A stretch of DNA of 64,000 bases from Elusimicrobia bacterium HGW-Elusimicrobia-1 (GTDB lineage Bacteria > Elusimicrobiota > Endomicrobiia > PHAN01), in contig PHAN01000002.1 in the NCBI GenBank assembly GCA_002841695.1, positions 90,807 through 154,806 on the forward strand. Reading direction: 5' to 3'. The notes beneath the pieces are model-generated. The model saw only the letters and a list, made by a program, of their open reading frames with translations. It made no database searches and was not told where the DNA came from. The position numbers and the translations under genes were made by a program. Below are positions 6,001-52,042 of this stretch, one piece after another (position 1 is the stretch's first letter; every line of letters begins with the position of its first letter).

Positions 6001-6298
6001 CCGCGCCGGCGCGCCGGAGTTTTCCTCGTCGGACGCATCCGTCACGCCGCGCGAAAAAGCGCCGGTCTATTTCAAAGTCGAAAATAATTTCTTCGACGAA
6101 AGATACGTCCGCGCGATAGAAATCGCCATACTGCGCCCTCACCCCGCCCCTCTCCCATCGAGGGAGAGGGAGTTTTTGCCGCATAGTTTCCTCTCCCCTT
6201 ATCAAAAGGGGGATGGCTGCAAATACCCCGTCAAACCTTCGGTTTGCCACCCCTTTAATAAAGGGGAATACAGCCGGGGTATTATTCCCCTCTTTTAG
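5..6298 (+). CDS. Giant secreted GH13-family alpha-amylase-like protein with long FN3 domain array (5' end lies upstream of window; last ~60 codons run into palindromic repeats)
   Basis: Uninterrupted 2097-codon ORF from window edge. GH13-like motifs: GGDFQGV...MGINMLWFAPV, GFRFD (region II), GEIPG (region III), MMENHDETR (region IV). Repeated FN3-type signatures YYYRVRAVDRSGNKS, YYYRIRAIDRRANIG, YYYKIVAIDDSGNTS. Confidence 0.8.
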   Translation: MINSVTVSAGDALWRDAISDQRSDNHSSTQLDISSVGISCDEYNLYMFVAFASTVAANFDGRNFIQIMLDNGLTSTERVFRGRGVGSEDSYVSGDTAWEYLCEIVTDNDVFRVEDSQFSNRNFGGYSEHNDNYFYEVAMPLSNLGGKERFLGKTVNFTVATFWNDNGVVGQWGAGSSNIVDVVTSSGTNTWNEVSDRVVDYYMAITLSTSGAITAVSGATANSVPPMTEPQPDASAPPSALDYMLYNIFVDAWRDGDPANNNPTDTNSYGGDFQGVMDSADYFNEMGINMLWFAPVHQFGGGIWGYNLDDAYQFMSRFGGRDKYIEMAKKVKNRNLKTMLDWVPGQVGGKDSPTGKKYPNYFQDEIFGYGLRQEFAEPRAYMVNNAVWWSSFTDGFRFDNPKFWDNGDGPGRYEFCRVLRFAVDRWNPELYMMGEIPGTVGNFNEYTGSLGPMIHGAIDMASGGYKDAWDHHICAWARPGDAQSRTTIGVRSGLDEQQVTWKNDLSINPVMMENHDETRLISRYRPGGANGEWQQRVAYMTAFLVGGPAKIFYGGEVGLEGPYGGGSSEKMDRNGNVRQMLFNRANEWPWIAVRDSIRRTLQAKANFPELRGDPKKGGRGWYTGGQYDDNVLVVARTWANPDRKSIVMINRSAGNVQMSSVGTGDNNTVYKDWLTDKNFTTNASGILQDNDNTDGDGNLNTFNVDSHNGRILIRGGYDWVNITGSVKDGAGNPVPGAVVDIDRKSHWTTTTDAGGNYSLSGDLRKVLTGNRTIRVWANGFGIVDISTNIVIAGGVNRTQNFTLTADNAPPQPPTNLSGRPRKNAAMIFWQPNTEGDIQSYIVYRSTVSIAAGSFPAPLVEIFSPYYYDNNFDGRINSDGKHVDLLENGATYYYRVRAVDRSGNKSALSNQIAIVPRPIKATFWVDTRDSGQSVASVDVEGDALAFGDTKPERNVRGWTQLFSNGDGTFQRTFDMDDSDFIEYKYVITTSGGGRIGEGDAGHLFNDPAGTNGAENRGEIYLDAIPNVEIRDEGDGTMLLPNVWRWYQDRAPRAPSGVGISAGPNILTTGWTKNAEPDLQYYTVQRSTWNSGFSGAVASVNIGKDQISYVDTNLLNGNTYYYRIRAIDRRANIGDWSSTIWAYPRAADTTAPVSPSGLAAYGSGTNGLGSVEVRWNANYEGDLAGYNIHRSTESEFAPVAANKLNIVLISPSQEPLYTDKNTTTGTQYYYKIVAIDDSGNTSNPSVQLSVKIIPVTFNVDMGNINPSNVQILGNTKPLDWSGTNSLTCPAASTYTITLGFVSGTTLWYRYAYNSASVEEQPFATSSSQYREYVIGYSTAVVSNDWEQNPDMVSGVKVYGGVNKAYLYWDANTTAEDIAGYNIYRSEPPSTTPTLKLNAGPTSYIQPYTVTGLDTGSTYYFSVKAVDSGSQVLESTAASVVPVFISSRVYVHFGIPFSVGQSSAPWGDADKIKMYLAVHNSTDTDLSVWNTSERANVTDGKMVMTASGDGTYRAMVPLAVGNRYNFTFFAQTTNNPPSGLNGNTEYYDTVPDTGSFIVSNSSTGISPPAGVSAVFAPFGITRDARRVLVLPSDIAAGSTMYVFANFGSSPTAPTYIQAVGGNNKVTLYWSAPYGSPWTYPSPEKTGNVPLGGGESMKAADVVAGGVYHIFVTTYNHGSFNSYTATVTLSGGTMNYTFTGLQNGVTYYYLMRSSDTFKGLVGNNFSVLSATVSAQPTSAAVPVSVRVNRGAHPLWKAVRKTIAFQEGTSVPAWDADGKSNITLTGKAVNMVAPADDATEQEFSANLIPGTSYNFILFAYSTFSIAGLETNTTYFDTVPNFGAGGMITSTSTISITGHGKALCGPAGPASDARRILYVPTDLPSGSTLYVYCNFASSPSAVYLSASVVSTFSVQLEWTPYGAWGTSGESLKAADVIAGGHYYVWRSSVSSAGPWNLWVSTSARNWIDADLNAPGDGLGLEAGRTYFYVVVSSDSYSGNFIPNMYRAGAPEFSSSDASVTPREKAPVYFKVENNFFDERYVRAIEIAILRPHPAPLPSREREFLPHSFLSPYQKGDGCKYPVKPSVCHPFNKGEYSRGIIPLF

Positions 6299-6370
6299 AG
6301 GGGTGTCCGAAGGACGAGGTGTTATTCCCCTTTTACAAAAGGGGTGTCCCGAAGGGACGGGGTATTTGAG
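6137..6370. repeat. Cluster of short CCCCTTT-N-AAAGGGG type hairpins (P1-related) overlapping the 3' end of the giant gene
   Basis: Successive inverted repeats: ccctctcccatcgagggagaggg, cacccctttaataaaggggaa, ttcccctcttttagaggggtg, ttccccttttacaaaaggggtg. Confidence 0.6.
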
Positions 6371-6447
6371 GGGTAAAATGATGGCGCGATTTTAACAGGA
6401 TATGTGATAAAAAAAGTCAAGGGTAAACCCTTGACTGGGAGGTAGTT

Positions 6448-7584
6448 ATGATGTACAGATTGTTTAGGTTGTTGTTGTGCGCCGCAATGGCCGCGTTAGT
6501 GGGCGCTTCGGCGCTTTTTGCGGCATCGGCCAACGCCCCTTGGGGCGACGCAGCGCAGATACAGGTCGGGGTGGTGATTCATCCGGGTGTCAGCGTCCCG
6601 GCGTGGCCGGAAGTCAACAAAAACGATATAACCGGAGACGCCACATCGTTCATCGTTGCGGGGAAAAGCGCGATGGAAGCCGTCGGAGACGGCACTTACC
6701 AGTTCAGAACCGACCTGGTACCCGGTGGCGTCTATAACTATATCTTTGGCGCCAGGATAATGCAGGGCGCATGGGGGTTCGATGCCGAAAAAGATTACGC
6801 CGAACCTATCCCCGACGGTTCCCAGCAGGACGACTCGGGCAATTACGCGACGAGCGATCCCGGCACTTTCGTATCGCTATCCTCGACGGCGTACTCGTCG
6901 ACGGGCGATGGCGGGGTGTCGTACGTCAATATCGTCGTCGACAACAATGGAAATTCAAGAAGAAAGTTAGATATGCCCACGGTTGATCCGGGCACGACCA
7001 TTTACGTCTTCAACAACTTCGGCTCGCTTCCGCGCGGAGTCGCGAATTACTCTGTGAAGATATCGTCCGGACGGGTGGATCTCAACTGGCAAGGCGCGCT
7101 GGGAACGTGGGGGTCGGGTATGCCTTCCGTCGACGCCCTCGGCGGGAGAAATCTGCTCTACGTCAGCACGTCCAACTCCGCGGGGCCTTACTCGCTTCTG
7201 GCGGATCTCGCCGGAACGGCCACGCATTACGCTCACTCGGGACTTGCCAACGGTACGTCGTATTATTTCATATTCGTCTCATCCGATCCCTACGGAGGTG
7301 TAACGCTGTCCACATACACTGCGTCGAAATCGCTTTGGGCGAATCTTTCGCGCGGCATACCGCCGACCGGCACGATGTGGAACTCCGGCGAATACGCGCA
7401 TAATGATAAATACGGCAAGCCGTCGGGCCCCGTTCCGGTCTATTTCAAAGTCGAAAATATCGACGAGAACTACGTCAGGGAGCACGGCGATCTCGTTTAT
7501 CTGACTCCGTGGCACGAGGACGGCAGATTATACCGACACAAGATTCAGGGCGTGTTTCTTTCCGCTTATCTGCCGAAGGGATGA
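6448..7584 (+). CDS. Secreted protein, paralogous to the C-terminal modules of the giant GH13 protein (unknown function)
   Basis: SD GGGAGG upstream of ATG; signal-peptide-like N-terminus MMYRLFRLLLCAAMAALVGASALFAASA; shared motifs GDGTYQF..YNYIFGA, TIYVFNNFGS, PVYFKVEN with gene 5..6298. Confidence 0.7.
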   Translation: MMYRLFRLLLCAAMAALVGASALFAASANAPWGDAAQIQVGVVIHPGVSVPAWPEVNKNDITGDATSFIVAGKSAMEAVGDGTYQFRTDLVPGGVYNYIFGARIMQGAWGFDAEKDYAEPIPDGSQQDDSGNYATSDPGTFVSLSSTAYSSTGDGGVSYVNIVVDNNGNSRRKLDMPTVDPGTTIYVFNNFGSLPRGVANYSVKISSGRVDLNWQGALGTWGSGMPSVDALGGRNLLYVSTSNSAGPYSLLADLAGTATHYAHSGLANGTSYYFIFVSSDPYGGVTLSTYTASKSLWANLSRGIPPTGTMWNSGEYAHNDKYGKPSGPVPVYFKVENIDENYVREHGDLVYLTPWHEDGRLYRHKIQGVFLSAYLPKG

Positions 7585-7635
7585 GGATAAAATATAGAAT
7601 TAAGTAACCGATACAAACGCGTTGGCACATTACGT

Positions 7636-7720
7636 AAAATCTCCCCTAACCCCTCTTTTTCAAAGAGGGGGAATAAGGGAACAATCCCCCTTTATTAAAG
7701 GGGGATAAAGGGGGATTTTT
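7636..7720. repeat. P1 palindromic element (AAATCCCCCT...CCCCCTTTnAAAGGGGG...AGGGGGATTT)
   Basis: Terminal inverted repeat aaaatctcccct / agggggatttt enclosing two internal hairpins; same family at 39948, 40383, 50775, 58173. Confidence 0.7.
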
Positions 7721-7751
7721 GAAATCGTCTCGTTTGTATTAAATTGCTGAT

Positions 7752-8849
7752 ATGAAAAAATCGAAGACGTTTCTATCGGTGGCTCTTTTAGTCGTCGCGT
7801 TTGCGTCGGCGGGTAGGATTTGCGCCCAACTCCCCGCCGGCGCGGGCGCGTTCGCGCAGTGGGGGAATTTCCAGAAAAAAATAGCCCTCCAGCGCGGCGT
7901 CGGCGTAAGCGCATGGGAAGACCGAGGCGACATAAGCTACGAGCAGTACGGGATGTATGCCGCGACGATGTCTCCCGTCGGAGACGGCACGTATCAGATA
8001 AAATTTGATTTGTATCCGGGCGCGGAATATAATTTCGCGTTCTTCGCCGTTTCGACGACGCCTTTGGCCGGCGTCACGACAGGTCTCACTTATTTCGACG
8101 CCGTTCCGAATCACGGCTCGGACGCGGCTTTCATCGCCTCGACCTCGCCCGCGGCGCCGCTTGCTTCCGATACGCGCTCGGCGGAATACAGGTCCATAGG
8201 CGGCGACGCCCGTCGATACGTCGCAATACCGGATCTCGCGCAGGGCACGACGTTTTACGTTTTCAGCAATTGGGCTTCGACCCCATCCGCCCCGACGGAC
8301 CTTCGCGCCCGGCCCGGCGACTCCAAGGTTCATCTTACATGGGGCGCGCCCTACGGCTGGTGGGGCACGGGCTCCCAACAATACAAAGCCATTGATGTAA
8401 TCGCGGGGGGAGCGTATGTTATTTACCGCTCGTCGGTGGCGGCGGGCGGCCCATACGAAATAGTGGCCTCGACTCCCGGACATTGTTTCTCATGGACGGA
8501 TACGAACGTTCAGAACGGAGTGCGATATTATTACGCCGTCTCGTCGAGCGACGCTTACAAAGGCGACGCCGAGGGGGTTCTCGGCGATGTCAATTTATGC
8601 TCGGACGCGGCGTCGTCACAGACGCCGGGAGCATCTCCGGGTCAGGCGGTTCCGATAAGATTCAGAGTCGAAGGCATCGACTGGAAGGTGATAAAAGAGA
8701 AGGGTTATCTCGCGTGGCTCACGCCGAACGCGGCTTCGGATGGGGCGCCGCCGTGCCCGCCCGCAAGAATCCCCGCGCGGCTCGTCGAAGTAAAACTTTC
8801 GAAAACATTGAAAGACAGAATAAGTGATGCGATTAGATGGTTGTTGTAG
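7752..8849 (+). CDS. Secreted protein of the same module family (unknown function)
   Basis: Signal peptide MKKSKTFLSVALLVVAFASAGRICAQ; motifs GDGTYQIKFDLYPGAEYNFAFFA, TYFDAVPNHG, TTFYVFSNWAS, PIRFRVEG shared with 6448..7584 and C-terminus of 5..6298. Confidence 0.7.
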   Translation: MKKSKTFLSVALLVVAFASAGRICAQLPAGAGAFAQWGNFQKKIALQRGVGVSAWEDRGDISYEQYGMYAATMSPVGDGTYQIKFDLYPGAEYNFAFFAVSTTPLAGVTTGLTYFDAVPNHGSDAAFIASTSPAAPLASDTRSAEYRSIGGDARRYVAIPDLAQGTTFYVFSNWASTPSAPTDLRARPGDSKVHLTWGAPYGWWGTGSQQYKAIDVIAGGAYVIYRSSVAAGGPYEIVASTPGHCFSWTDTNVQNGVRYYYAVSSSDAYKGDAEGVLGDVNLCSDAASSQTPGASPGQAVPIRFRVEGIDWKVIKEKGYLAWLTPNAASDGAPPCPPARIPARLVEVKLSKTLKDRISDAIRWLL

Positions 8850-8906: not shown

Positions 8907-9080
8907 CTTGTCCCCGTAGGCAAAAGGACTTGTCCCCGTAGGCAAAAGGACTTGTCTCCGTAGGCAAAAGGACTTGTCTCCGTAGGCAAAAGGGCTTGTC
9001 CCCGTAGGCAAAAGGGCTTGTCCCCGTAGGCAAAAGGACTTGTCTCCGTAGACAAAAGGGCTTGTCCCCGTAGACAAAAA
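8907..9080. repeat. Tandem repeat, 8 copies of a 22-bp unit (cttgtccccgtaggcaaaagga), ending at the RAYT start codon
   Basis: Eight head-to-tail units with few substitutions, no spacers; first unit overlaps REP-like gtagtgtaggggcttgtcccc. Confidence 0.85.
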
Positions 9081-9538
9081 TGGAACCACCAAAAAAAATC
9101 CGGCTGGAAAAAGAACTATATTCACAACCCGGAAGAATATATTTTGTTACTGTTAATACAAATTTTAAAAAAGGTTTTTTTATAGAGGACAACTTTAATC
9201 GCGAAATTATACAGTGTTTATTGACGGAGAGAAATAACAGATATAGTATTTTCGTATATTGTTTGATGCCTGACCATATTCATTTTTTAATTTCAACAAA
9301 TGCTGAAAATTATTCAATTACTGATTTTGTGAATAGATTTAAAGGATTGACAACAAGAATTGGTTGGAAATACGGTGTTGAAAAAGTTCTATGGCAAAGA
9401 AGATTTTACGATCATATATTAAGAAAGCAAGAAGATGCTAAAAAAATTGCGGAGTATATAGTTAGCAATCCTGTAAGAAAAGGTTTGGTTAAAAATTGGA
9501 AAGAATATCCATATTGTGGGTATATAGATGAATTTTAA
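9080..9538 (+). CDS. REP-associated tyrosine transposase (IS200/IS605 TnpA-like, HUH Y1 family)
   Basis: 152 aa; HUH motif in CLMPDHIHFLIS; conserved C-terminal tyrosine region AEYIVSNPVRKGLV; codon usage AT-rich relative to neighbours. Confidence 0.8.
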   Translation: MEPPKKIRLEKELYSQPGRIYFVTVNTNFKKGFFIEDNFNREIIQCLLTERNNRYSIFVYCLMPDHIHFLISTNAENYSITDFVNRFKGLTTRIGWKYGVEKVLWQRRFYDHILRKQEDAKKIAEYIVSNPVRKGLVKNWKEYPYCGYIDEF

Positions 9539-12215
9539 ATTACGCCCGTGTAGTGTAGGGATTTATGCCCGTAACAAATTTGCGTATTTACGCCCACAAG
9601 GGGCTACATTGCATACGTATTTACGCCCGCAAGGGGCTACACTACTGTTATTATTTATTTGCAATTTGCTTTATGCTCTTGAAATCGGAACTCCTGCGGG
9701 TGAGACGGGCGGCTTTGCGACGCAGCAGAAACATTTTTACGGCGACTATCTTTCGTCGGGCTCGCCTTCGGACTCCGTTTGGAGTTCGTCGGCGGCGATG
9801 ACACGCGAGGCGCTCGCCGACGGCACGACGATATACTTCGCGGACATTCCGGTAACGGCGGGCAACACCTTTTACTACTATTTTAAAACTCAATCGTCGG
9901 GCGAGCAAAAAACGCCGGTATACAGAACTATCTACGTCAGCAGTTCGAATCCCGGCGAAATTATCGTCGACGGAACGGCGTATCCGGCGGCGGGTCTCGT
10001 TGCGGCGGCTACGGTCTGGCACAACTTCTCGGACGCTCCGCCGCCTCCGGCCAATCTCACTTCTTTCTGGTCAGCCGCCAACGACTTCGTATCTCTTGAA
10101 TGGGACAACCCGCTTTTCGACGGAACCGCTGTTTTCGATCTTACGGGCGGAGGCGGTTATGAGATATGGCGCTCAAGCGTATCGTTTTCCGACGGTATGG
10201 CCGTGATATCTTCCGTCACGGCGATTTTAAGCCGCATGAGTTTTCCTGATTCGTCCGTCGAGGCGGGCGCGACTTATTATTACCGCGTCCGCGCCTACGA
10301 CGCGTATCTTCCGCCAATGCTTTCGTCTCCCGCGCAAACTTCGCCCGCATCGAAAAGAAATTACGTCACGGTTGCCCTCGAGGTCGACGTATTCGCGCTA
10401 TCGGGAGTAACCGGGGTTTCCGTTATCGGAGATTTCACCTCGCCGCCGTTTTACAAAGGCCGTCTGAGTATGGATTACGCCGGCGGCGGCAAATGGCGGC
10501 TCGAACACGCCGACGCTTCGCTTTACTCCGGAGCGCTCATCAAATACAAATATCTCGTCAACGGCGAACTTTATGAACCCGATCTGCCGCCTGCGCTCGG
10601 AGGGCCGTACAGAAATGTCGCGATAAAGGATGAGGGTTCGCGCAGAATGACTATTAAAGACGTCTGGTCGGTCTGGACTCCGACGGGAACGCCGTCGAAC
10701 CTGCCGCGGTTTATGACGGCTTTTTCCGCCGAGCCGTCCGCCGGCGCCGTCAAAATCACATGGGACTGCGACCCCTTTTCGACGGGCACTCTTCTGGGTT
10801 ACGCACTTGAGCGCTCGTCGTTCGCCGCCGGCGGTTATTCCGTAATATCTTCGCCGGATATCCTGGGCCCCGCGACATTCTACTACTCGGACGTCCTCGC
10901 CGACGGCTCGACGGCTTTCTACAGGATCGCCGCCGTATCCTCGTCGGGACAATGGTCGGAGTTCTCCGATGCCGTAAAGGCCAATCCTCCGTCCGTCGGG
11001 GAATCTCTGCCGCGATACAATCCCGCCGCCCAAGAGGTTTTCGCGGCGGGCGATTTTATTTGCGATATCGGTAATCTGACGGGTGAAGTCATACTTGCGT
11101 GGAATGCCGCGTCTCATGACGCGGCCTACGGCGCGGCGAGCGCATACATTGTCAAATACGCGACATTCCCGATAATCGGCGCCGATTCTTTTCATCGCGC
11201 AAAGACCGCCGGCGCGGCGCGCGGTTTGCCGTTGGGCGCGACGGGGCGTCTGACGACTTTGAACCTCGGCGGGGACTGCCCGGGTTTTTACTTTGCGGTC
11301 TGCGCGGTCTACGGCTCGTGGCACGTCGTGGGATTTTCAACTTCCGTCGTGGCGGTAGCCCCCAAGGCCTTCGACGCCAAGGATGGCGGCCTCGTCGTCA
11401 AAACGTTGCGTTTCGCGGGATCCTCGCCGGAGGCGCCGAGCGTGGCGGCGATGGAGTTTCCGCCGGGTGCGCTTCAACAGGGCGAATATCTCGGAGTCAT
11501 AAAAAATCTCGGGGAATTACGGCTCGACGGATCGGTCGCGGCCAAGATAGACGCGGCCAATTCACTCGCCTCGCGTGATGCCAGATTCGGCTATGTCGCG
11601 GATAACGAGAACCTTGCGTCGTCGAGCGTTTTCGCTTTCGATCTTTACGATTCGGCGAAAAACGATTACTTTAATCCCGTCGCCGGCAGAAGAGCGCGCA
11701 AAGACATAGTCGTCTCGCTGTCTTACGCAGGGCTGTCCATTGTGCCGGAGGAGTTGAAAGTCGCGCGCCTCAACGAAAAAAACGATTTCTGGCGGATACT
11801 GAAAGATATCAAACCCGATATAGACCGCGACGCCAAGCTCATAAAGTTCAAAACTAAGGAACTCTCGGTCTACGCACTCTTTCGCGCGCCGGCTCCCGCC
11901 GCCGATCTTTCGAACGTAGCGGTTTATCCGAACCCCTTCAAGCCGCACGACGGCTTACGCGAAACGGGCGACTATTCGACGGGAATCAGATTCACCAACC
12001 TCACACGGAACGCGGATATCAGGATTTATAATATAGCCGGCGAATTGGTCAGATACAAAGGGCTTGAAGCCGACGAGATCGGAGAGTGCCGCTGGGACGC
12101 CATGAACGACGACGGTGAACGCGTCGCAAGCGGCGTTTACATTTTCATTGCGAAAGATGAAAGCGTCAAGGTCGGCAAAAACCATTTCACAGGAAAAGTG
12201 GGAATTGTAAGATAA
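9528..12215 (+). CDS. Large FN3-containing surface protein with C-terminal FlgD-Ig/T9SS-like sorting domain (start codon uncertain; N-terminus encoded by REP sequence)
   Basis: 895-aa ORF; FN3 signature ATYYYRVRAYD; C-terminus AVYPNPFKP...IRIYNIAGELVRY...WDAMNDDGERVASGVYIFIAKD...GKVGIVR. Confidence 0.7.
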   Translation: MNFKLRPCSVGIYARNKFAYLRPQGATLHTYLRPQGATLLLLFICNLLYALEIGTPAGETGGFATQQKHFYGDYLSSGSPSDSVWSSSAAMTREALADGTTIYFADIPVTAGNTFYYYFKTQSSGEQKTPVYRTIYVSSSNPGEIIVDGTAYPAAGLVAAATVWHNFSDAPPPPANLTSFWSAANDFVSLEWDNPLFDGTAVFDLTGGGGYEIWRSSVSFSDGMAVISSVTAILSRMSFPDSSVEAGATYYYRVRAYDAYLPPMLSSPAQTSPASKRNYVTVALEVDVFALSGVTGVSVIGDFTSPPFYKGRLSMDYAGGGKWRLEHADASLYSGALIKYKYLVNGELYEPDLPPALGGPYRNVAIKDEGSRRMTIKDVWSVWTPTGTPSNLPRFMTAFSAEPSAGAVKITWDCDPFSTGTLLGYALERSSFAAGGYSVISSPDILGPATFYYSDVLADGSTAFYRIAAVSSSGQWSEFSDAVKANPPSVGESLPRYNPAAQEVFAAGDFICDIGNLTGEVILAWNAASHDAAYGAASAYIVKYATFPIIGADSFHRAKTAGAARGLPLGATGRLTTLNLGGDCPGFYFAVCAVYGSWHVVGFSTSVVAVAPKAFDAKDGGLVVKTLRFAGSSPEAPSVAAMEFPPGALQQGEYLGVIKNLGELRLDGSVAAKIDAANSLASRDARFGYVADNENLASSSVFAFDLYDSAKNDYFNPVAGRRARKDIVVSLSYAGLSIVPEELKVARLNEKNDFWRILKDIKPDIDRDAKLIKFKTKELSVYALFRAPAPAADLSNVAVYPNPFKPHDGLRETGDYSTGIRFTNLTRNADIRIYNIAGELVRYKGLEADEIGECRWDAMNDDGERVASGVYIFIAKDESVKVGKNHFTGKVGIVR

Positions 12216-12257
12216 AGTGGTCAGTGGATAGTGGTTAGTAAATAAAACGGATAATAT

Positions 12258-13250
12258 ATGAGAAAATTGTGTCTTTCGACTAGTGTTTCGACGGCAACTC
12301 GCGGACGAGGACGGCCCCTGCGACGGATTGCCCTTGTCCTTGCCTTTACTATCCACTATACACTGACCACTAACCACTCTCTACACGCCGCCGGCACGAC
12401 ATCCGCGACTTTTCTTAAACTCGGTGTCGGGGCGAGACCGGTGGGGATGGCCTCGGCGTTCGCAGGCGTGGCCGACGACGTCAACTCCGTCGCATGGAAC
12501 CCTGCGGGGCTCGCCTCAGTCGACGCGAAAGAATTTTCGTTTATGCATCTTGAACATTTTCAGGACGTGCGCTACGATTCGCTGTGCTATGCTCATCCTA
12601 TGAAAAAAACGGTCGTCGCATTCGGCTTTGGCTATCTGTATACCGACGAGATAACAAGGACTTTCATAGACGACGATGTTTATGCGGGTTTTCGCGCGCA
12701 GGGAGATTACCGGCTCCAGGATAGGACGTTTTTTGTTGCGGCGGCAAGACGAATCTCCGATGATAAGGCCGTCGGAGCGCTCGTCAGGTGGCTTTCGGAG
12801 AGGATAGAAGATAATGAAGCGACGGGGCTCGCCGCCGACGTCGGATATCTTCATCTCGTGACGGACCGTCTCGCGTTCGGTTTGTCCGTCCAGAATATCG
12901 GCGGGACGATAAGATTCATCGCGGCCGACGAAATGCTGCCGCTGACTTTTCGCGCGGGCTTCGGATATGACGTTGTCGCCGGAAAACTCAAACTCGCGCT
13001 CGACTTCGTCAAGCCCGTCGACTATCAACTTTCGATCAATCTCGGCGCCGAGTACAGGGCGTTTGACGCGCTCGCCGTCAGAGGCGGATGGAGCTTCAAA
13101 GATTTGTTCTACGACGACCGGCTTAACGGAACATCCGGCGCGGCTCTGGGGATGGGGTTTTCTTTTCACAATTATTCTCTTGACTACGCTTTCGCGCCTT
13201 ATGGAGAGCTCGGTTATTCTCACAGAATATCGTTCGGGGGAAAGTTTTGA
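12258..13250 (+). CDS. Beta-barrel outer-membrane protein, PorV/PorQ- or PorP/SprF-like
   Basis: N-terminal motif LKLGVGARPVGMASAFAGVADDVNSVAWNPAGLA; alternating beta-strand-like pattern; C-terminal ...ISFGGKF (terminal Phe). Confidence 0.6.
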   Translation: MRKLCLSTSVSTATRGRGRPLRRIALVLAFTIHYTLTTNHSLHAAGTTSATFLKLGVGARPVGMASAFAGVADDVNSVAWNPAGLASVDAKEFSFMHLEHFQDVRYDSLCYAHPMKKTVVAFGFGYLYTDEITRTFIDDDVYAGFRAQGDYRLQDRTFFVAAARRISDDKAVGALVRWLSERIEDNEATGLAADVGYLHLVTDRLAFGLSVQNIGGTIRFIAADEMLPLTFRAGFGYDVVAGKLKLALDFVKPVDYQLSINLGAEYRAFDALAVRGGWSFKDLFYDDRLNGTSGAALGMGFSFHNYSLDYAFAPYGELGYSHRISFGGKF

Positions 13251-13254
13251 AAAA

Positions 13255-13425
13255 GCAGGGTTTAGAAAGACAGGGTTTAGGGCATAGGGTCTAGGGTTTA
13301 GTAAAATGAATAAAAAACAGAGTATAAAAAAGACAGGGTTTAGGGTTCAGGGTTTAGGGGTTAGGTTTTTTTTCTTTTTTCTTTTTTCTATTTTCTATCC
13401 CCTAACCCATAGACCCTATACCCTG
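13255..13425. repeat. Leader palindrome P3 built from GGGTTTAGGG-type units; contains start codon and signal-peptide coding region of 13306..15414
   Basis: cagggtttagggcatagggtctagggtttag ... cagggtttagggttcagggtttaggggttagg ... ctatcccctaacccatagaccctataccctg; near-identical copy at 22629-22772. Confidence 0.75.
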
Positions 13426-15414
13426 CTTTATGCTACAACCCCCCACACAATTGCTATCGACGGCAACATCGCCGAATGGCGCAAAGACGAGTTGATTTAC
13501 GACGACTCCTGGAACGACTCTCCGTGGGGCGCGCAAAATGAAATCCACCGATTGTACGCCACATGGGACGACTCGGCTTTGTACCTTGGAGTATCGGGCG
13601 TTCAGAAGGACGGCAACAACCTTATCGTCTACATAGACACATCCCCGCTCGACGGAATCGCGGACGCCTCCCTTCTGAAAGATCCGGGTAATCCCTCGGG
13701 GATGTGGTGGTGGCGCAGAGGGAATAAATTCGCCCACGGCTTCAGACCGGATTTTCAGTGGCATCTTTACGAGATGAAACTGGATCCCGCGGATGGCCAC
13801 GGATTTTTCCGGCTCTATCCCGACGATACGACCGCGAATCTCAACGGCTCCGTCGCGCAGAAGGCCTCCGGCGGGGGCGCGGGCAATATCGGTTACGCCG
13901 AGATAAAGATACCGTGGCAGATTTTATTCGGCGCGGCATCTTTCCCGTCGGGAGAGGAAATCAGAATCGCGGCGGCTGTCACGGGCGGTATGGATACGCG
14001 AGGCACGCTCGATTCTTCCGACGATCTTTTCGGCTCGGCGCGCGACACGATACCCGACCAAAAGGCGGTTTTCCCCGAAGTATGGCACGATTCTTCTACG
14101 ATAGACACGTGGCTCGCTCTGAATCTTTCGGGAACCTCCGGCGACCGGTCGCCGGTGCCGCGCTCGCTCGTCTTAACTCCGCAAAGTCCGTTCGATGCGA
14201 AGGTTTCCTGGCAGACGCGCGGGATCATCGAAAGCAATCTCGACGAATACCGGCTGTATTACGCCCAAGACGGAACCGACGGGCGTTACGTCCGCGCGGC
14301 ATCGACGGAGACGTCCGCCGCGATAGAAGGCCTCGTCGCGGGTGCGACCTATCATTTTTTTCTGAGGGCGGTATATTCGGGCGAGGGGGAAGGCGGTTGT
14401 TCTGAAACGTTGGTTTCGCGGCTGCTGCGCCCTTCGCTCGCGCATTCGGCGCAAAGTGTATTTTGCTTTCCCGGTAAAATCCTCGATATTGAAGTCGAAT
14501 CCTCCGCCGCGCCGTCGGCGGTTGCGTTGCGCTATTTGTTTGACTCTGAAAATGTCTGGCGCACGTCGGCGATGAACATCGCCGGATCCAAGGCCTCATA
14601 CGCTCTTTGGCTGCCTTCAATCCCGGCCACACTGAAATATTATTTCGAAATAACGGACTCGGCCGGCACTCATCTTCTGCCCGCCTCGGCGCCGGCCTTC
14701 TCGTATGCCGTAAAGATAGAGTCGCGCGGTTCGGCGTACGCGCCGCTCTCGACGCAAACTTCGACGCTCGATTTCGGGGGAGGAGTCCTGATGGAAATAC
14801 CGCCGGACGGGCTCTCGACCGCGACGACCATCTATTTCGAATATTCATCGTCGAACGGCGATCTTTACGGCGACGGCGGACTCAGAGCGCTCGCGTATTA
14901 CGATTTTTACGCGCTTGATAGAAGCGGCAGCCGCGTCGGAGTGGTTTTCGAAAAGCCCGCGTTGATTAAGCTCAGATATTTCGACGACGACATCGCCGGC
15001 GTATCCGAATATGAGCTTTCCGTCGGGCGCATAGCCGGCGCAAGAAACGTGGCGCTCAAAGGAACGGTTTCCGCGGCCGAAAATAAAATATCTTTCGAGA
15101 CGTCCCATTTTTCCCGCTTTGCGATTTTTTCAGGAGAGACGGCCGTCTCGCCGATTGCCGGGCCGCTTAAAAAAGTCGTGCGGCCCACATTTAATCCGTC
15201 TCTGGGCGAAGTCGTGGAGTTCGACTGCGAGACGCCGTCGAAGATAGAAATATTCGATATGCGCGGTCGCCTAATCCGGACTTTTGACGGGAACTTCTGG
15301 GACGGCCGCGATTCGCTCGGCTCCAAAACTGCGCCCGGCGTATATCTTTATCGTCTCAGTACGCCCGAGCCGGGAAGAAAGAATATTTACGGCAGTTGTG
15401 TGGTAATCAGGTAA
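13306..15414 (+). CDS. Secreted surface protein with N-terminal CBM9/DOMON-like domain and C-terminal FlgD-Ig/T9SS-like domain
   Basis: 702 aa; N-terminal TIAIDGNIAEW...LYATWDDSALYLGVSGV; C-terminus RPTFNPSLGEVVEF...IEIFDMRGRLIRTF...WDGRDSLGSKTAPGVYLYRL...CVVIR. Confidence 0.7.
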   Translation: MNKKQSIKKTGFRVQGLGVRFFFFFLFSIFYPLTHRPYTLLYATTPHTIAIDGNIAEWRKDELIYDDSWNDSPWGAQNEIHRLYATWDDSALYLGVSGVQKDGNNLIVYIDTSPLDGIADASLLKDPGNPSGMWWWRRGNKFAHGFRPDFQWHLYEMKLDPADGHGFFRLYPDDTTANLNGSVAQKASGGGAGNIGYAEIKIPWQILFGAASFPSGEEIRIAAAVTGGMDTRGTLDSSDDLFGSARDTIPDQKAVFPEVWHDSSTIDTWLALNLSGTSGDRSPVPRSLVLTPQSPFDAKVSWQTRGIIESNLDEYRLYYAQDGTDGRYVRAASTETSAAIEGLVAGATYHFFLRAVYSGEGEGGCSETLVSRLLRPSLAHSAQSVFCFPGKILDIEVESSAAPSAVALRYLFDSENVWRTSAMNIAGSKASYALWLPSIPATLKYYFEITDSAGTHLLPASAPAFSYAVKIESRGSAYAPLSTQTSTLDFGGGVLMEIPPDGLSTATTIYFEYSSSNGDLYGDGGLRALAYYDFYALDRSGSRVGVVFEKPALIKLRYFDDDIAGVSEYELSVGRIAGARNVALKGTVSAAENKISFETSHFSRFAIFSGETAVSPIAGPLKKVVRPTFNPSLGEVVEFDCETPSKIEIFDMRGRLIRTFDGNFWDGRDSLGSKTAPGVYLYRLSTPEPGRKNIYGSCVVIR

Positions 15415-15437
15415 CCGTGTGTTAATCGGATAACAAA

Positions 15438-15620
15438 TTGAGTCAATTGAAAAACCCTTATCACGTCATTCCCGCGAAAGCGGGAATCCAGAGTTTCAGT
15501 CGTAGTATGGATTCGTCCCCGAATGTCTTTATCGGGGATAACAACATTCGGGAATGACCCCCGATAAAAACGTTCGAGGGCAGGCATACGGGAAAAAGGT
15601 TGGTTTTTCAATTGACTCAA
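15438..15620. mobile_element. MITE-like element with terminal inverted repeats and nested internal palindrome
   Basis: TIRs ttgagtcaattgaaaaacc / ggtttttcaattgactcaa; internal gtcattcccgcgaaagcgggaatcc ... cgggaatgac. Confidence 0.7.
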
Positions 15621-15660
15621 ATTAAAAGGTGAAAATATTTACGGTGGCTGGCTCGATAAA

Positions 15661-16623
15661 ATGATGATGACGAAACATTCGTTTGCGCGTCTTCGCGCGG
15701 CGGCATTGGCGGCAGCGGTGCTATGTGTTTGCGCCGCGGCGTCGAGATCCTACGAGCCGGGCGCAAACGCGGCTATTTTATCGTCGGCGGGAGGCGGCGC
15801 CGCCGCGATGTCGGCGCATTATGTCTGGCTCAATCCCGCCGCCGCGGCCTTCGCCGCCGACGGATTTGCGTCGAGCGTCGGCTATAAAAAGTTTTTCGCC
15901 GGGGTTGACACTTCCGCCGCAGAAGGAGTGCCGGGATATATCAGGCCGGACATCTCCGAGACGACGCTCGAAGTTCTCTGTCCGTTCGGCGACGGTCTGA
16001 CGGCCGGCGCGGGATTCTATTCGCTCGGGCTCAAGGATTATTTTTCGCGTCAGAACCTGGTTCTTTACGCCGCATATCCGGTCGGGGGCTCGACCTATTC
16101 CTCGCAGGGCGATCATCTGTCGTCGGATGACCGTATCGTCATAGGCGCCGCGCTCAAACAGGTTTCGATTTCTTATGTCGCGGACGAATATACCTCCGAT
16201 TTTTTCTCCGTGTACTCAGGGCGTAAAAGCGCGCTGACTCTGGACGTCGGGGCGATATATACCGCCGGTCGTCTGCGATTGGGAGTCGTCGGGCGCAATC
16301 TCATTCCAGCGAATCTCGGCATCTATGAAAACGCGCCTGAGGATGTCTCCTTCCTCATCGGCGCGGCGGCGGTCTTCCGGCCATACGAGTTGCGGCTCGA
16401 CTTCGCCGCATCAGGATACAAGGGTTTCACCGAAGCGATACCTTCGGTCGAGATAAAAGCCGGCGCGGCGGATTTTCGTCTGGGCGTCAATTCGTCGCAG
16501 GCGGCCGCCGGCGCGACCCTGCGTTCCGGCGATATTGCCCTGACGGCGGCTTTCATATATCCCTACGTGATATCCGGCGGCTTCGGCGATTTCGCGGCCG
16601 AGTTTTCTTACAGGATAAAATAA
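15661..16623 (+). CDS. Outer-membrane beta-barrel-like protein (divergent member of the same partner family)
   Basis: Signal peptide MMMTKHSFARLRAAALAAAVLCVCAAA; motif MSAHYVWLNPAAAAFAADG; stop overlaps start of next gene. Confidence 0.5.
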   Translation: MMMTKHSFARLRAAALAAAVLCVCAAASRSYEPGANAAILSSAGGGAAAMSAHYVWLNPAAAAFAADGFASSVGYKKFFAGVDTSAAEGVPGYIRPDISETTLEVLCPFGDGLTAGAGFYSLGLKDYFSRQNLVLYAAYPVGGSTYSSQGDHLSSDDRIVIGAALKQVSISYVADEYTSDFFSVYSGRKSALTLDVGAIYTAGRLRLGVVGRNLIPANLGIYENAPEDVSFLIGAAAVFRPYELRLDFAASGYKGFTEAIPSVEIKAGAADFRLGVNSSQAAAGATLRSGDIALTAAFIYPYVISGGFGDFAAEFSYRIK

Positions 16624-18014
16624 TGACAATTTCGGCGAAGGACAAAACCCCGCACACCTTTCTCTTCGGCGCGGAACTCGCCGCCCAGACGGCGGTGTTG
16701 CTGTGGATCGCTCTGGCGCTCGCAGTAGTTTTCGTTTCTCTAAGGGCGCCGCAGCACATAATTCTTGTGTATCCGGCTTCCGTCCTCGTAATTTTTTTGA
16801 GTCACATTTTTTCGGGAACGTCCGTCGCGGCGTCATTGCTGGCTTTTTTTACCATAATCTCTCTCGTCGGCGCGATAGCCGCTTCATCGGTGACGAACAG
16901 GGCGACTTTCATCTCGTCTCTGGCGCTCTCATGGGCGGTGTTTTTCGCGGCGCTGAAATACGCGGCTATAATGGATTCCCGTCGGGCGGCATTCGCGGAA
17001 AAATCGGAAGAGTTTGAGATAGCTCTTAACGAGACGCGGCGGTTTGCGGCGGAGCATTCAGAGACCGCCGCTGCCTGTGAACGCAGGATAGAAAACTATT
17101 CTAAAATGGCCGCGTTTCTGCGCGCGGTGTGCGGCCTTCTTGACGCGGAGGATTTTTTTGCGGCATTGAGCGGCAGGTTCGCCGGCTATCTCGGCGAAGG
17201 CGCGATGCTTTCCTTCCGCTCCGCTCCGCCGGATTTTGTGGCGGCCGCCGGCGGAAGCGCGGGCGCGTTCCATGCGACCGGAGCATTTTTCGTCTCCGCC
17301 GATTCGAGGCGCATAGCCGCGACTTTTCTCGACGAAGTCCCCGGGCGCGAATGGGTTTTGGTCGAAAAAACTTCCCGGGCTCTGACCGACGACGATAAGC
17401 GTTTTCTTTCTTTGGCTCTTGATTTTTCAAGGACGGCGGCGGCAAATGCGATGCTTTACGAAAAAACTCAGAAACTATCCATACTCGATGAACTCACGGG
17501 AGCGTATCTGAGGGGTTACCTTATGGAGCGCTTTGATGAGGAATTTACGCTCGCGCGCGGACACGGCGCTCCCCTTTCGGCGCTTATGTTCGACATCGAT
17601 CATTTCAAGAGCATTAACGACGAACACGGACACACCGTCGGAGATGAAGTGCTAAAAGCCATTGCTCATTCGCTCAGGAGGCGACTGCGCGAGACCGACA
17701 TCCTCGGAAGATACGGGGGGGAAGAGTTTGTCGCCGTAATGCCGCATACGGACTGCGCCGCCGCCCTGGCCGTCGCCCAAGAAGTCCGATCGATGATAGA
17801 ACACGAAAGATTCTTCGCCGGACCGGCGTCCGCGGCTCTCCGTGTGACGGTAAGCGTGGGCGCGGCTTCGATGGAATCGTCCGACGAATCCTGGCAACAA
17901 ATTCTCTCTCGCGCCGACAAGATGCTTTATGCGGCCAAAATATCCGGTCGAAATCGCGTGATGCCGTCGCCGGATAGCGGATCGGGAGCAAAACCCGGCC
18001 CTGATAAAAATTAA
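16623..18014 (+). CDS. Membrane-anchored GGDEF diguanylate cyclase
   Basis: N-terminal hydrophobic segments; GGDEF domain LTGAYLRGYL...FDIDHFKSINDEHGHTVGDEVL...RYGGEEFVAV. Confidence 0.85.
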   Translation: MTISAKDKTPHTFLFGAELAAQTAVLLWIALALAVVFVSLRAPQHIILVYPASVLVIFLSHIFSGTSVAASLLAFFTIISLVGAIAASSVTNRATFISSLALSWAVFFAALKYAAIMDSRRAAFAEKSEEFEIALNETRRFAAEHSETAAACERRIENYSKMAAFLRAVCGLLDAEDFFAALSGRFAGYLGEGAMLSFRSAPPDFVAAAGGSAGAFHATGAFFVSADSRRIAATFLDEVPGREWVLVEKTSRALTDDDKRFLSLALDFSRTAAANAMLYEKTQKLSILDELTGAYLRGYLMERFDEEFTLARGHGAPLSALMFDIDHFKSINDEHGHTVGDEVLKAIAHSLRRRLRETDILGRYGGEEFVAVMPHTDCAAALAVAQEVRSMIEHERFFAGPASAALRVTVSVGAASMESSDESWQQILSRADKMLYAAKISGRNRVMPSPDSGSGAKPGPDKN

Positions 18015-18018
18015 GGAT

Positions 18019-19296
18019 ATGAACTTTATCGGATACGTCTACCCTCACATCGGTTACTTCCTGTCGGCGGCTTTTCTGTGGTCACTGACGATGACAGCCG
18101 CCAAACCCCGGGCGATTGCGGCGGCTGTCTCGACCGCAGCGGTTCTGATATGGGTGTTTCCGATACTGTGGCCGACAATCGGGATGGAGTCGCGCGCGAT
18201 CGTCGGGCCGCTTACATTTTTTGCGATATCGGCGATATTCGCCTCGGATTTCTATAAATCACTCGGCCGCGCGGCGAGGGGTTGCGCCGCGAAAATAGAT
18301 GAGATGGGATGCCGGCTCGCCGTCGAAAAAGAGCGACTCGCCGCCGCGACTGCCGGGGCTATTAAGCTTCAGCGAGATCTCGACAAAACGACCGCCGACT
18401 TCGTCGCGGCTAAAGAAACGCTCTCGCAAATGAATAAAGAGGAACTCTGCGAAAATATAACCCGCCTCGTTTCATCGGTCGAGGGAGTGTCGGGCGTCCG
18501 TGTTTTCGACCACAAGGGATCGTGCCTTTCCGCCTTTCCTCGCCTTCCGTCGGAAAGCCACTCGGCCGACGTGCGTGTCTTTTTTGAGAACGGTCCAATG
18601 CCGTCGAACGGAAATTATTTTTTCGGCGCGATATCGGACGGGAACAGGCGGCTCGGCGCGATATTGGCGGAGTTTGTGTCGGCCCCTGCGAGCGACCGCC
18701 TTAGCGCCGTTGAAAATCTATTTTCCGTATTTGCTCTCGGCTATCGCCGCGCGGCGCTCTTTGAAGAGTACGAATCGAAATCGCGCCACGACGCGCTCAC
18801 CGGACTTTTTAACCGGCGTTATTTTTTTCGGAAACTCGACATCGAGATTAAGCGAGCGCACAGATACGGAAGCGGTTTCGCTCTGCTTATGCTCGACGCG
18901 GATAACTTCAAAAAAGTCAACGACACTTACGGACATCCGGCCGGCGATGCGGTGCTCGTCAAAATATCGTCCGTGCTTGCGGCGTTTGAATATCCGGGCG
19001 CTTTCGTCGGAAGGTACGGCGGCGAGGAGTTTGTCGTCTGCCTGCCTTACTGCGATTCCTCAACGGCGCTCGAACAAGCCGAACGCGTGCGACGTTCGAT
19101 AGAGGCCGCGGATTTTTCGGATAATCTTCGGGGAATGATACAATTCCACGTAACGGCGAGCGTCGGCGCGGCCGTATATCCGGATTCAGGCGTTACGGGA
19201 GCGGCTCTATGCGCCGCCGCCGATAATGCTCTCTACGCGGCTAAAGAAAGCGGCAGAAACCGCTCGGTACTCTCAAGTCGCCCGTCCGCGCCATAA
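18019..19296 (+). CDS. Membrane-anchored GGDEF diguanylate cyclase
   Basis: LTGLFNRRYF...MLDADNFKKVNDTYGHPAGDAVL...RYGGEEFVVCLP; N-terminal TM segments. Confidence 0.85.
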   Translation: MNFIGYVYPHIGYFLSAAFLWSLTMTAAKPRAIAAAVSTAAVLIWVFPILWPTIGMESRAIVGPLTFFAISAIFASDFYKSLGRAARGCAAKIDEMGCRLAVEKERLAAATAGAIKLQRDLDKTTADFVAAKETLSQMNKEELCENITRLVSSVEGVSGVRVFDHKGSCLSAFPRLPSESHSADVRVFFENGPMPSNGNYFFGAISDGNRRLGAILAEFVSAPASDRLSAVENLFSVFALGYRRAALFEEYESKSRHDALTGLFNRRYFFRKLDIEIKRAHRYGSGFALLMLDADNFKKVNDTYGHPAGDAVLVKISSVLAAFEYPGAFVGRYGGEEFVVCLPYCDSSTALEQAERVRRSIEAADFSDNLRGMIQFHVTASVGAAVYPDSGVTGAALCAAADNALYAAKESGRNRSVLSSRPSAP

Positions 19297-19325
19297 GCGG
19301 CAAGAATGACTTAACGGAGGAAATT

Positions 19326-20267
19326 ATGCTGGAAAAACTCGTTTCAAGGATGACCCCGAAATGGCGCGACACGACGGTGGCTCTCGTTTTTCTTTCGCCG
19401 TTTCTGGCCGTTTACGCCGTTTTTCTCGTCTATCCGATTTTTTACTCGATGTATCTGAGTTTCAGGACGGTGAGCGTCGATACCGACATGTTCAACGTTT
19501 TTTCAGATATGAGATTTACCGGCCTGAAAAACTATATTGAACTTGCGAAAGATTATCACTTCTGGTGGTCGCTCGCCGTAACTTTTTACTACGCTATCCT
19601 CTATATACCGCTTCTGATTTTCTCCTCGCTCGTTCTGGCAGTGCTTCTTAACAATCATCTCAAAGGGCACTCGTTTTTCCGCAGCGCCTATTTCATGCCG
19701 AATGTCCTGGATATGTTTGTCGTCGGAACCATATGGATGTTCCTCTACGCCCCGCAGGGAGGCGTCATCTCGCAGATTATGAACGCTCTCGGCATAGATT
19801 TTTTTTCGCGCGAGGGAATACTCGGCAGCCCCCGCACCGCAATGCTCGGAGTCGTCGTGGCTTTGGTTCTCAAAAACACCGGTTTCGGAATGATTCTTTT
19901 TCTTGCGGCGATACAAAACATATCACGCTCGGTCTACGAAGCCGCCGACATCGACGGAGCCAGTAACTGGCAGAAGTTCACGAAAATCACGATACCTCTC
20001 GTGAGACCCATAATCCTTTTTATGGTTGTGACGGGTATGATAGGAGCGCTCAACTCCTTCACCGAAATTTACGCGATGACTTCCGGCAAGCCCAACGTCG
20101 TCGTTTTCGGTAAGACGATGGAGGCGACGCGCGTGGCGGGATATTATCTTTTCCGTCAGTGGGACAGGATGAATTACGGTTACGCCGCCGCCATGAGCTA
20201 CGCCCTTCTTTTTATTACGCTGGCGGTCTCTTACGTCAACGCGAAGATTCTTAAGTCGTCGCATTAG
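19326..20267 (+). CDS. ABC sugar transporter permease (MalF/UgpA-like)
   Basis: SD ACGGAGG; multi-TM; EAA-loop-type motif YEAADIDGASNWQKFTKITIPLVRP. Confidence 0.85.
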   Translation: MLEKLVSRMTPKWRDTTVALVFLSPFLAVYAVFLVYPIFYSMYLSFRTVSVDTDMFNVFSDMRFTGLKNYIELAKDYHFWWSLAVTFYYAILYIPLLIFSSLVLAVLLNNHLKGHSFFRSAYFMPNVLDMFVVGTIWMFLYAPQGGVISQIMNALGIDFFSREGILGSPRTAMLGVVVALVLKNTGFGMILFLAAIQNISRSVYEAADIDGASNWQKFTKITIPLVRPIILFMVVTGMIGALNSFTEIYAMTSGKPNVVVFGKTMEATRVAGYYLFRQWDRMNYGYAAAMSYALLFITLAVSYVNAKILKSSH

Positions 20268-20274
20268 AAAAAGG

Positions 20275-20332
20275 ATGTAGCGGTGGGATTGCCATCCCAC
20301 AAATTCGGCGAATAGCAATTCGCCCGCTACAT
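20275..20332. repeat. Palindromic intergenic element P6 (TGTAGCGG...CCGCTACA enclosing two hairpins)
   Basis: gatgtagcggtgggattgccatcccac...ggcgaatagcaattcgcccgctacat; related copies at 21196-21253 and 39231-39288. Confidence 0.7.
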
Positions 20333-52039: not shown

Positions 52040-52042
52040 GAA

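Follow-up and report, generated by a model that had tools for sequence, protein, structure and literature searches.

We found that the metagenome-assembled genome (MAG) of Elusimicrobia bacterium HGW-Elusimicrobia-1 contains a cluster of gene pairs, each consisting of a gene for a secreted protein with a characteristic C-terminal domain (CTD) followed by a gene for an outer membrane beta-barrel. The pairs lie in a 64,000-nucleotide stretch of contig PHAN01000002.1 (positions 90,807 to 154,806; referred to here as the window), whose proteins in the MAG are PKN02096-PKN02125. We refer to the secreted proteins as cargos. Both parts of the pairs are homologous to components of the Bacteroidota type IX secretion system (T9SS), barrel 1 has a PorV-like fold, the tight gene order is found across the phylum, and the CTDs and barrels have diverged in parallel. 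The unit under selection is the PorZ-type CTD together with the downstream barrel. The explanation that we favor, with moderate confidence, is that each pair is a surface-display module in which the barrel would be a dedicated carrier and anchor for the retained CTD of its neighbor, following the logic of PorZ and PorQ.

The pairs were first noticed in a prediction made from the nucleotide sequence (the original prediction). It proposed a cognate pairing of cargo and partner, T9SS-like character of both parts, and a non-canonical lineage. Our results bear out all three: the pairing logic holds, the CTDs and barrels are homologous to T9SS parts, and the host belongs to the Elusimicrobiota. Relatives of the window at ~90% identity carry the label Endomicrobiia.

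Gene pairs in the window and their two parts

A greedy gene model places about 38 genes in the window, almost all of them on the + strand. The eight open reading frames (ORFs) singled out by the original prediction are all present, on the + strand, where it had placed them; the features of the pairs described below are all on this strand. Cargo 1 (9609-12215) is an 868-aa secreted multi-domain protein (fn3/Ig-like) with a PorZ-type CTD encoded at ~11907-12212. Its longest ORF begins at 9528, and the first ~27 codons of that version translate a REP-like (repetitive extragenic palindromic) tandem repeat. Gene callers start at 9609, and because the REP-like repeats downstream of a transposase-like ORF (see below) are translated in the long version, we regard that version as inflated. 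Barrel 1 (12258-13250) begins 42 nt after cargo 1 and encodes a 330-aa outer membrane barrel of the PorV/PorQ family with a FadL fold. Cargo 2 (13306-15414) is a 702-aa secreted protein with fn3 domains and a CTD encoded at ~15130-15411. Its N-terminal domain is shared with cargo 3 and with a 2412-aa giant protein encoded further along in the window. Barrel 2 (15661-16623, 320 aa) is a divergent member of the PorV/PorQ/PorP superfamily and belongs to a rare subfamily; gene calls place its start at 15661 or at 15808 (271 aa).

Cargo 3 (22651-23760) is a 369-aa secreted protein (CTD at ~23491-23757). It is followed by barrel 3 (23877-24752), a PorV/PorQ-like barrel of ~285 aa for which an ATG at 23901 is also a plausible start. 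Cargo 4 (53078-56119) is a 1013-aa, fn3-rich secreted protein (CTD at ~55829-56116). Its partner, barrel 4 (56437-58074), is a PorV/PorQ-like barrel of 545 aa whose C-terminus is extended by ~210 aa, comprising a coiled coil, a Pro-rich linker and a helical domain. This extension is presumably periplasmic. The start at 56437 agrees with the original prediction, and 56269 is the start of the longest ORF reading only. Barrel 4 is followed by a mini-protein (58337-58702) of 121 aa that consists of a signal peptide and a CTD only. The signal peptide (58337-58390) ends in a lipobox-like LVAC, and the mini-protein may be a lipoprotein that carries a CTD as well.

A fifth pair lies at the right edge of the window. 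Cargo 5 (60893-64000, where it runs off the window) is a 2267-aa DUF2341/fn3/BNR protein with a CTD, and just past the window end comes a PorV-like barrel of 552 aa that has a TPR extension. On a longer contig (L087), the cargo of this pair is at 11880-18683 and the barrel at 18733-20391. Local hidden Markov models (HMMs) recognized both the CTD (E 2e-16) and the barrel (E 6e-50). By direct inspection, all of the cargos have an N-terminal Sec-type signal, with a charged n-region, a hydrophobic core and a cleavage-type motif (...LYA or ...AA). When the order of the 38 genes was shuffled (5 of them for CTD proteins and 4 for barrels), at least four CTD-then-barrel adjacencies occurred in 7.5e-5 of the shuffles.

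By sequence, the window CTDs are type-A-like, and specifically they resemble those of PorZ and PorU. The five CTDs are mutually alignable and each ends with (V/I)V(I/A)R or GIVR directly before the stop codon. Two, those of cargos 1 and 3, score above the Pfam cut-off of 27 bits for FlgD_ig (PF13860), with 29.1 and 28.7 bits, respectively. With TIGR04183, the model for type A CTDs of the T9SS (cut-off 23 bits), the scores are 21.8 for cargo 2, 21.6 for the mini-protein, 16.5 for cargo 3 and 13.3 for cargo 1; 7 of 9 partners tested from related loci reach the cut-off (25.0-34.0 bits). The CTD of cargo 4 has a sub-threshold match to CHU_C (25.6 bits). A local CTD model detects cargo 2 (1e-28), cargo 4 (3e-35) and the mini-protein (8e-36). 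The CTD of cargo 1 matches the PorZ C-terminus among NCBIfam models (E 1.3e-14) and the PorZ structure in the PDB (5m11, E 1.9e-4). Those of cargo 3 (7e-7) and cargo 4 (4e-5) match the PorU C-terminus.

The HMM consensus of the CTDs from the window and related loci is ...VYPNPFKPN...ITF.NLT...IKIYNIAGELV...WDGKNDSGEKVASGVYIY......GKLAVIR. A profile of 50 CTD sequences, searched against PDB sequences, matched the PorZ CTD (5m11) over its full length with an E-value of 4e-13, followed by the PorU CTD (6za2, 6e-7) and FlgD Ig domains (~1e-5). In contrast, the ordinary cleaved type A CTDs gave 1e-3 (8glk_D), 0.016 (8glj_D) and 0.22 (RgpB). PorZ orthologs from several Bacteroidota end with ...FAVIR, ...LAIVR, ...IAIIR and ...LAVVR, matching the GKLAVIR-COOH of the consensus. 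That is, the window CTDs and PorZ have a terminal motif in common, ...A(V/I)(V/I)R. The cargos are not orthologs of PorZ or PorU: the match is limited to the CTD, and scores are far under the equivalog cut-offs. We also considered a flagellar role like that of FlgD and rejected it; it is large secreted proteins that end with this domain, and flagella are reported to be absent from the phylum (PMC11257099).

The window barrels appear from their sequences to be members of the PorV/PorQ family, and not orthologs of any named T9SS component. Barrel 1 scores 149.5 bits with NF033709, the model for this family (cut-off 90 bits). With the models for specific T9SS barrels it scores 79.2 (PorQ), 76.2 (PorV2) and 50.8 bits (PorV), and the other barrels score lower; the equivalog cut-offs are 220, 325 and 250 bits. 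The NF033709 matches of barrel 3 (38.8 bits, E 7.8e-10) and barrel 4 (35.8 bits, E 6.6e-9, spanning the whole model) are significant but do not reach the cut-off, and both barrels are recognized by the local barrel-family model (E 1e-14 and 4e-21). A profile built from barrel 1 together with 42 homologs matched PorV of Flavobacterium johnsoniae (6h3i_F) with an E-value of 8.6e-34. The AlphaFold 2 (AF2) model of barrel 1 (pLDDT, the confidence score, 87) shows a beta-barrel in which the NPA motif is part of a plug segment at the N-terminus. Its top structural match with Foldseek was PorV (8gl6_F; E 5e-17, TM 0.72) and the next were FadL, TodX and TbuX. The 8gl6 structure is a T9SS complex that contains PorV and is bound to a substrate, the RemA CTD. 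There were also weak Toluene_X matches among the barrels. The N-terminal motif G.GAR...NPAGLA is clear in barrels 1, 3 and 4, and only ...NPA... is left in barrel 2. Extensions at the C-terminus, including TPR, are present in many barrels, among them barrel 4, the barrel of pair 5 (552 aa), P0056, P0081 and P0153.

Barrel 2 is the most divergent. It has no direct match to NF033709, and its predicted barrel fold comes from homology. A small alignment of its orthologs matched a PorV-like profile (hhalign 96%, E 3e-9, 243 columns), and its ortholog in a related locus (L083, see below) carries PF11751 (PorP_SprF). A word-indexed homolog search with barrel 2 found only 3 near-identical relatives. 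An exhaustive search of 1.84 billion proteins found 16 representatives, and the distant ones weakly match PorV_fam or PorP_fam.

These results change the assignment of the two parts. The original prediction had likened the CTDs to those of type B cargos and the barrels to PorP/SprF. However, the type B model TIGR04131 gave 19.8 bits against a cut-off of 35, and only with cargo 4, and the PorP/SprF model TIGR03519 gave 13.4 bits against 90.55, and only with barrel 2 (32.8 bits with its ortholog P0152). Of the HMM searches that had been proposed as a check, that for the PorV family (NF033709) gave a score above cut-off with barrel 1, and those with TIGR04131, TIGR04183 and TIGR03519 did not reach their cut-offs in the window. 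Because the CTDs appear to be PorZ/PorU-like and the barrels to be of the PorV/PorQ family, the closest precedent is probably the anchoring of PorZ by PorQ and PorU by PorV, and not SprB-SprF.

Conservation and parallel divergence of the pairs

We found that the adjacency of cargo and barrel genes is conserved in related genomes, as the original prediction had anticipated. In two related loci, L083 (NCBI GCA_041694835.1) and L084 (from JGI, the Joint Genome Institute), the entire block is kept at ~60% identity. In both, the amylase gene and its two paralogs are followed by pair 1 (cargo 1, barrel 1) and pair 2 (cargo 2, barrel 2), and then by two GGDEF genes, the ATP-binding cassette (ABC) genes and cargo 3. 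The ORFs of cargo and barrel have a 4-nt overlap.

The arrangement is also found much more widely. We scanned one genome per GTDB species with a barrel profile, yielding 80 loci that are at most 37% identical, and counted pairs with the local CTD and barrel HMMs on all ORFs of those loci (1.2 Mb, 95 barrel genes). A same-strand CTD gene is immediately upstream of 66 of the 95 barrel genes. Conversely, 66 of 80 CTD genes have a barrel as the very next gene, and 3 more have one at the second position. The gaps between cargo and barrel are mostly <50 nt, with an overlap of exactly 4 nt in 16 pairs. CTD genes away from the barrel used as seed are a less biased sample; 7 of these 17 have their own barrel next to them, compared to a background density of barrels of 1.2% of genes. 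Some barrels are preceded by two CTD genes.

By phylum label, the paired fraction of barrels is 32/39 in Elusimicrobiota, 3/3 in Aerophobetes, 2/10 in phyla of the Fibrobacteres-Chlorobi-Bacteroidetes (FCB) group and 0/3 in Poribacteria. The arrangement also occurs in Desantisbacteria, FCPU426, many unlabelled MAGs, and occasionally in FCB genomes (Zixibacteria, Marinifilum). It is not lineage-specific, contrary to what had originally been suggested.

The CTDs and barrels have diverged together. Distances between CTDs correlate with distances between barrels (Mantel r 0.77, a value reached in 0 of 2000 permutations), and the correlation persists among pairs that are <45% identical (r 0.61). 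In the window, the CTDs of cargo 4 and the mini-protein are mutual closest relatives, with an alignment score of 150 compared to at most 99 for every other pair of window CTDs. It therefore seems that both are probably served by barrel 4; that is, the mini-protein probably shares this barrel with cargo 4.

What is joined to the CTD varies greatly. Passenger domains include NHL and PQQ propellers and fn3 arrays, and the proteins range from 190-aa mini-proteins to giants of 3300 aa, whereas the unit of CTD and barrel is constant. Across related loci, the pair has no conserved third partner; recurrent neighbors are generic signalling and ABC genes. CTD proteins of 191-194 aa directly upstream of barrels form a conserved subfamily in six related loci from Elusimicrobia MAGs (L027, L037, L050, L051, L056 and L058, at ~9336-9920 in each). 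In two of these, L027 and L037, what comes after the small CTD proteins is large proteins (750-1195 aa) that have no annotation.

A proposed display module and its alternatives

The explanation we favor is as follows. The cargo would be exported by Sec and would keep its PorZ/PorU-type C-terminal beta-sandwich domain, which would not be removed. The retained CTD would dock non-covalently on the extracellular face of the barrel encoded immediately downstream. This barrel, of the PorQ/PorV type with a FadL fold, would be a permanent anchor, like PorQ for PorZ and PorV for PorU in Bacteroidota. The cargo could cross the outer membrane by way of a T9SS-type translocon encoded elsewhere or by another route. 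By homology with the Bacteroidota proteins, we infer that CTD and barrel bind each other, that the CTD is retained, and that the cargo is exposed at the cell surface. The proteins displayed by the window pairs probably bind or process alpha-glucans, as suggested by synteny alone. The original prediction had described the barrel as a channel. The plugged FadL-fold protein seen in the model is less suggestive of a conduit than of a carrier or an anchor.

Several findings weigh against this explanation or limit its reach. The window CTDs all score under the TIGR04183 cut-off, and three of the four window barrels score below the cut-off for NF033709. The AF2 model of barrel 2, made from a 3-sequence alignment, is unusable (pLDDT 26). 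Shared descent of orthologous pairs inflates the Mantel correlation, and CTDs that share a barrel in two related loci (L003 and L018) are no more alike than CTDs of different barrels. Lastly, 10 of the 17 CTD genes away from a seed barrel have no adjoining barrel, and the relation is therefore not strictly one-to-one. Together with the barrels that are preceded by two CTD genes, this departs from the original suggestion of one cargo for each barrel.

It is possible, although we consider it unlikely, that the pairs belong to a canonical T9SS. In that case SprA/Sov and PorKLMN would be encoded elsewhere, the barrels would be extra PorV-type shuttles, and a PorU-type sortase would cleave the CTD so that the cargo is released or covalently attached. 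The barrels are homologous to PorV, the CTDs of relatives pass TIGR04183 (25-34 bits vs 23), and some FCB genomes have such pairs (Zixibacteria, Marinifilum), all consistent with this alternative. However, the CTDs are far closer to the uncleaved CTDs of PorZ and PorU than to cleaved ones, and barrels in FCB genomes are mostly unpaired (2/10 paired) compared to those of Elusimicrobiota (32/39 paired). Adjacency of porU and porV is typical, and we considered the ~1000-1160-aa CTD proteins upstream of barrels as candidate PorU sortases. None of the nine tested (0/9) is one: only their CTDs match PorU/PorZ, and their passengers are NHL/PQQ propellers and similar domains. According to published reports, the T9SS occurs only in Bacteroidota or the FCB group (PMC4793230, PMC11205867), and we found nothing in the literature that ties T9SS or PorV to Elusimicrobia. 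We saw no T9SS core gene (SprA/Sov, PorK/L/M/N, PorU, PorT, PorW) in the 64-kb window. With Sov of Porphyromonas gingivalis as query (sequence from a PeerJ supplement), tblastn and phmmer gave no match at E<=1 in 1.36 Mb of window and related loci, which is <1% of each genome.

The missing Sov match, although weak evidence given so small a sample of each genome, and the phylum not being known for T9SS would also fit self-contained export. Here the barrel, alone or with the beta-barrel assembly machinery (BAM), would move the cargo over the outer membrane without a T9SS translocon, as in two-partner secretion or Slam/type 11 secretion. The two-gene pair is the sole conserved unit, and many barrels have periplasmic C-terminal extensions that include TPR. 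In contrast, the modeled barrel is small, plugged and FadL-type, with the N-terminal NPA hatch motif, and cargos have up to 2000-3300 aa of folded Ig and propeller domains. We regard self-contained export as rather improbable. The FadL/TodX fold, the weak Toluene_X matches and a locus devoted to starch uptake would be expected if the barrel were instead a FadL-type import channel for nutrients, the upstream protein a surface substrate binder (similar to SusC/SusD), and the CTD a generic Ig-like domain. But FadL channels carry hydrophobic compounds, and maltodextrins are not a FadL substrate. Furthermore, the nearest relative in sequence and structure is PorV, which is not a transporter, the CTD specifically matches the anchoring CTDs of PorZ and PorU down to the terminal motif, and elsewhere the cargos have unrelated passenger domains and genomic contexts. 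Nutrient uptake thus seems very unlikely.

The arrangement we favor has precedents in Bacteroidota. PorZ and PorU are the two T9SS proteins with uncleaved CTDs, and they are held on the PorQ and PorV barrels (PMC10202324, PMC12365241, PMC8545088). A review has hypothesized a carrier principle both for PorZ/PorQ and for PorP/SprF-like proteins with type B cargos (PMC10202324); in the pairs described here, it would extend to type-A-like CTDs and be the principal way of display. As with PorZ-PorQ and PorU-PorV, which are sub-complexes of the T9SS attachment complex in P. gingivalis, a CTD-bearing protein is found next to a FadL-fold barrel of the PorV/PorQ family; retention and binding of the CTD are known there and would apply here by homology. 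The resemblance is closest to PorZ-PorQ, in that the CTD profile matched PorZ best, then PorU, and barrel 1 matched PorQ best among the specific T9SS barrel models. Unlike the Bacteroidota pairs, there are many cargos here, each with its own downstream barrel and often translationally overlapped with it, and the host is in the Elusimicrobiota. The barrels here are also ~100 aa shorter than PorV, and some have periplasmic TPR or coiled-coil tails.

Type B cargos are similar in a different way. The genes for SprB-SprF (F. johnsoniae) and PG1035-PorP (P. gingivalis) are clustered, the carriers are cargo-specific, and anchoring is barrel-bound (PMC9143113, PMC12618676). Cargo and carrier genes adjoin here too, in four window pairs and one at the edge. 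However, the CTDs here fail TIGR04131, the barrels are of the PorV/PorQ family, and weak PorP signals are limited to the barrel 2 lineage. In Bacteroidota a single PorV serves all type A cargos (PMC12618676). The barrels and CTD class described here are homologous to that shuttle and its cargos, and PorV of 8gl6 is the best structural match of barrel 1, but there are at least 5 barrels in ~75 kb, each adjoining a cargo. The likeness to Slam/type 11 and two-partner secretion is by analogy alone: a dedicated barrel is encoded beside its substrate, which has a recognition domain at the C-terminus. Slam is a 14-stranded barrel with an N-terminal periplasmic TPR domain, and its substrates are lipoproteins or hemophilins. 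The TPR is at the C-terminus in the barrels here.

What appears from these comparisons to be new is anchoring of the PorZ-PorQ type as a modular, operon-encoded display for many unrelated proteins, across Elusimicrobiota. Known wiring of this kind is limited to parts of the Bacteroidota T9SS; cognate carriers have been described only for type B cargos, and PorZ-PorQ and PorU-PorV have so far been viewed as exceptions within the secretion machine. The succession of a CTD gene and a barrel gene provides a simple genomic rule to predict the surface proteomes of uncultured phyla, and the dozens of natural cognate pairs can be used to study the specificity of CTDs for carriers. The origin of the T9SS attachment complex also becomes testable. 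We can speculate, with considerable doubt, that Elusimicrobiota and several more candidate phyla outside the FCB group are without a T9SS translocon and motor, and that the pairs are an autonomous, ancient display pathway that was later recruited into the attachment complex and carrier principle of the Bacteroidota T9SS. The barrel, sometimes with its TPR tail, would then help bring its own cargo to the cell surface. A true absence of the translocon would point to a route of export across the outer membrane that has not been described, and would make the pairs far more important.

The surrounding locus and its repeats

The pairs are surrounded by a locus for utilization of starch and maltodextrins. 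It encodes a giant GH13 amylase (5-6298 in the window; 2968 aa on longer contigs), two further GH13 enzymes, one GH31 enzyme, and three CBM48/AMPK1_CBM proteins. Transport genes encode a MalK-type ATPase, two ABC permeases and one solute-binding protein, and there are also genes for a two-component system and two GGDEF proteins. In the stretch 5-8849, the amylase is followed by two secreted proteins (365-378 aa; 6448-7584 and 7752-8849) that have its C-terminal part in common with it, including the motif ...P(V/I)YFKVEN.... Synteny of the amylase and these two paralogs is kept in relatives at ~60% identity. All three are without a CTD, and their surface attachment, if any, would be by another route.

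The two GGDEF proteins (diguanylate cyclases) are encoded in tandem at 16623-19296, with pair 2 on one side and the genes of the ABC transporter on the other. The first GGDEF gene overlaps the stop codon of barrel 2, and the position of the two is the same in L083 and L084. This conserved placement hints at control of the locus by cyclic di-GMP (c-di-GMP).

Directly after barrel 3, with a 4-nt overlap with its stop codon, is a gene for a 521-aa protein (24749-26314) that has a signal peptide and ends with ...ILFKINF. It is probably an outer membrane beta-barrel, and a candidate for the porin that serves the maltodextrin system. Neither Pfam nor NCBIfam gave a match, and no homolog is present among ~85 related loci. 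We considered it as a conserved third partner of the pairs, and rejected this since no other locus has a homolog.

Another group of secreted proteins is encoded at 40565-52955. The first is a surface protein of 2412 aa that has no CTD (40565-47803), and after it come small secreted proteins that are paralogs: the one at 47921-48883 resembles that at 51140-52039, and the one at 49507-50349 resembles that at 52179-52955. A 227-aa gene (50460-51143) is located among them. Beyond weak BT_3987-like and choice-of-anchor matches, no family matches were found for the proteins of this region, which may be a second, different surface-assembly module. Past the right end of the window by ~7.6 kb, directly after pair 5, L087 encodes a membrane protein with FliG_M and FliG_C domains (20636-21446). 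Elusimicrobiota are reported to be entirely without flagella (PMC11257099).

There are long inverted repeats at the 5' ends of several genes for secreted proteins (12216-12371, 13334-13425, 22690-22761 and 47803-48023). They fall into two families, AGTGGTTAGTGG/CCACTAACCACT and the G-rich GGGTTTAGGG/CCCTAAACCC. At barrel 1 the repeat arms flank the ribosome-binding site and start codon. In cargos 2 and 3 both arms are within the region coding for the signal peptide and are translated as ...GFRVQGLGVR...FYPLT... or ...FTIHY.LTTNH.L.AA. These repeats could be involved in translational control or could be domesticated sequence from REP elements or miniature inverted-repeat transposable elements (MITEs). 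Upstream of cargo 1 is an IS200/Y1-transposase-like ORF (9080-9538, PF01797) that lies between tandem REP-like repeats (9000-9650), with four copies of gtccccgtaggcaaaagg upstream and two of tacgcccrcaaggggctaca downstream. This ORF resembles a REP-associated tyrosine transposase.

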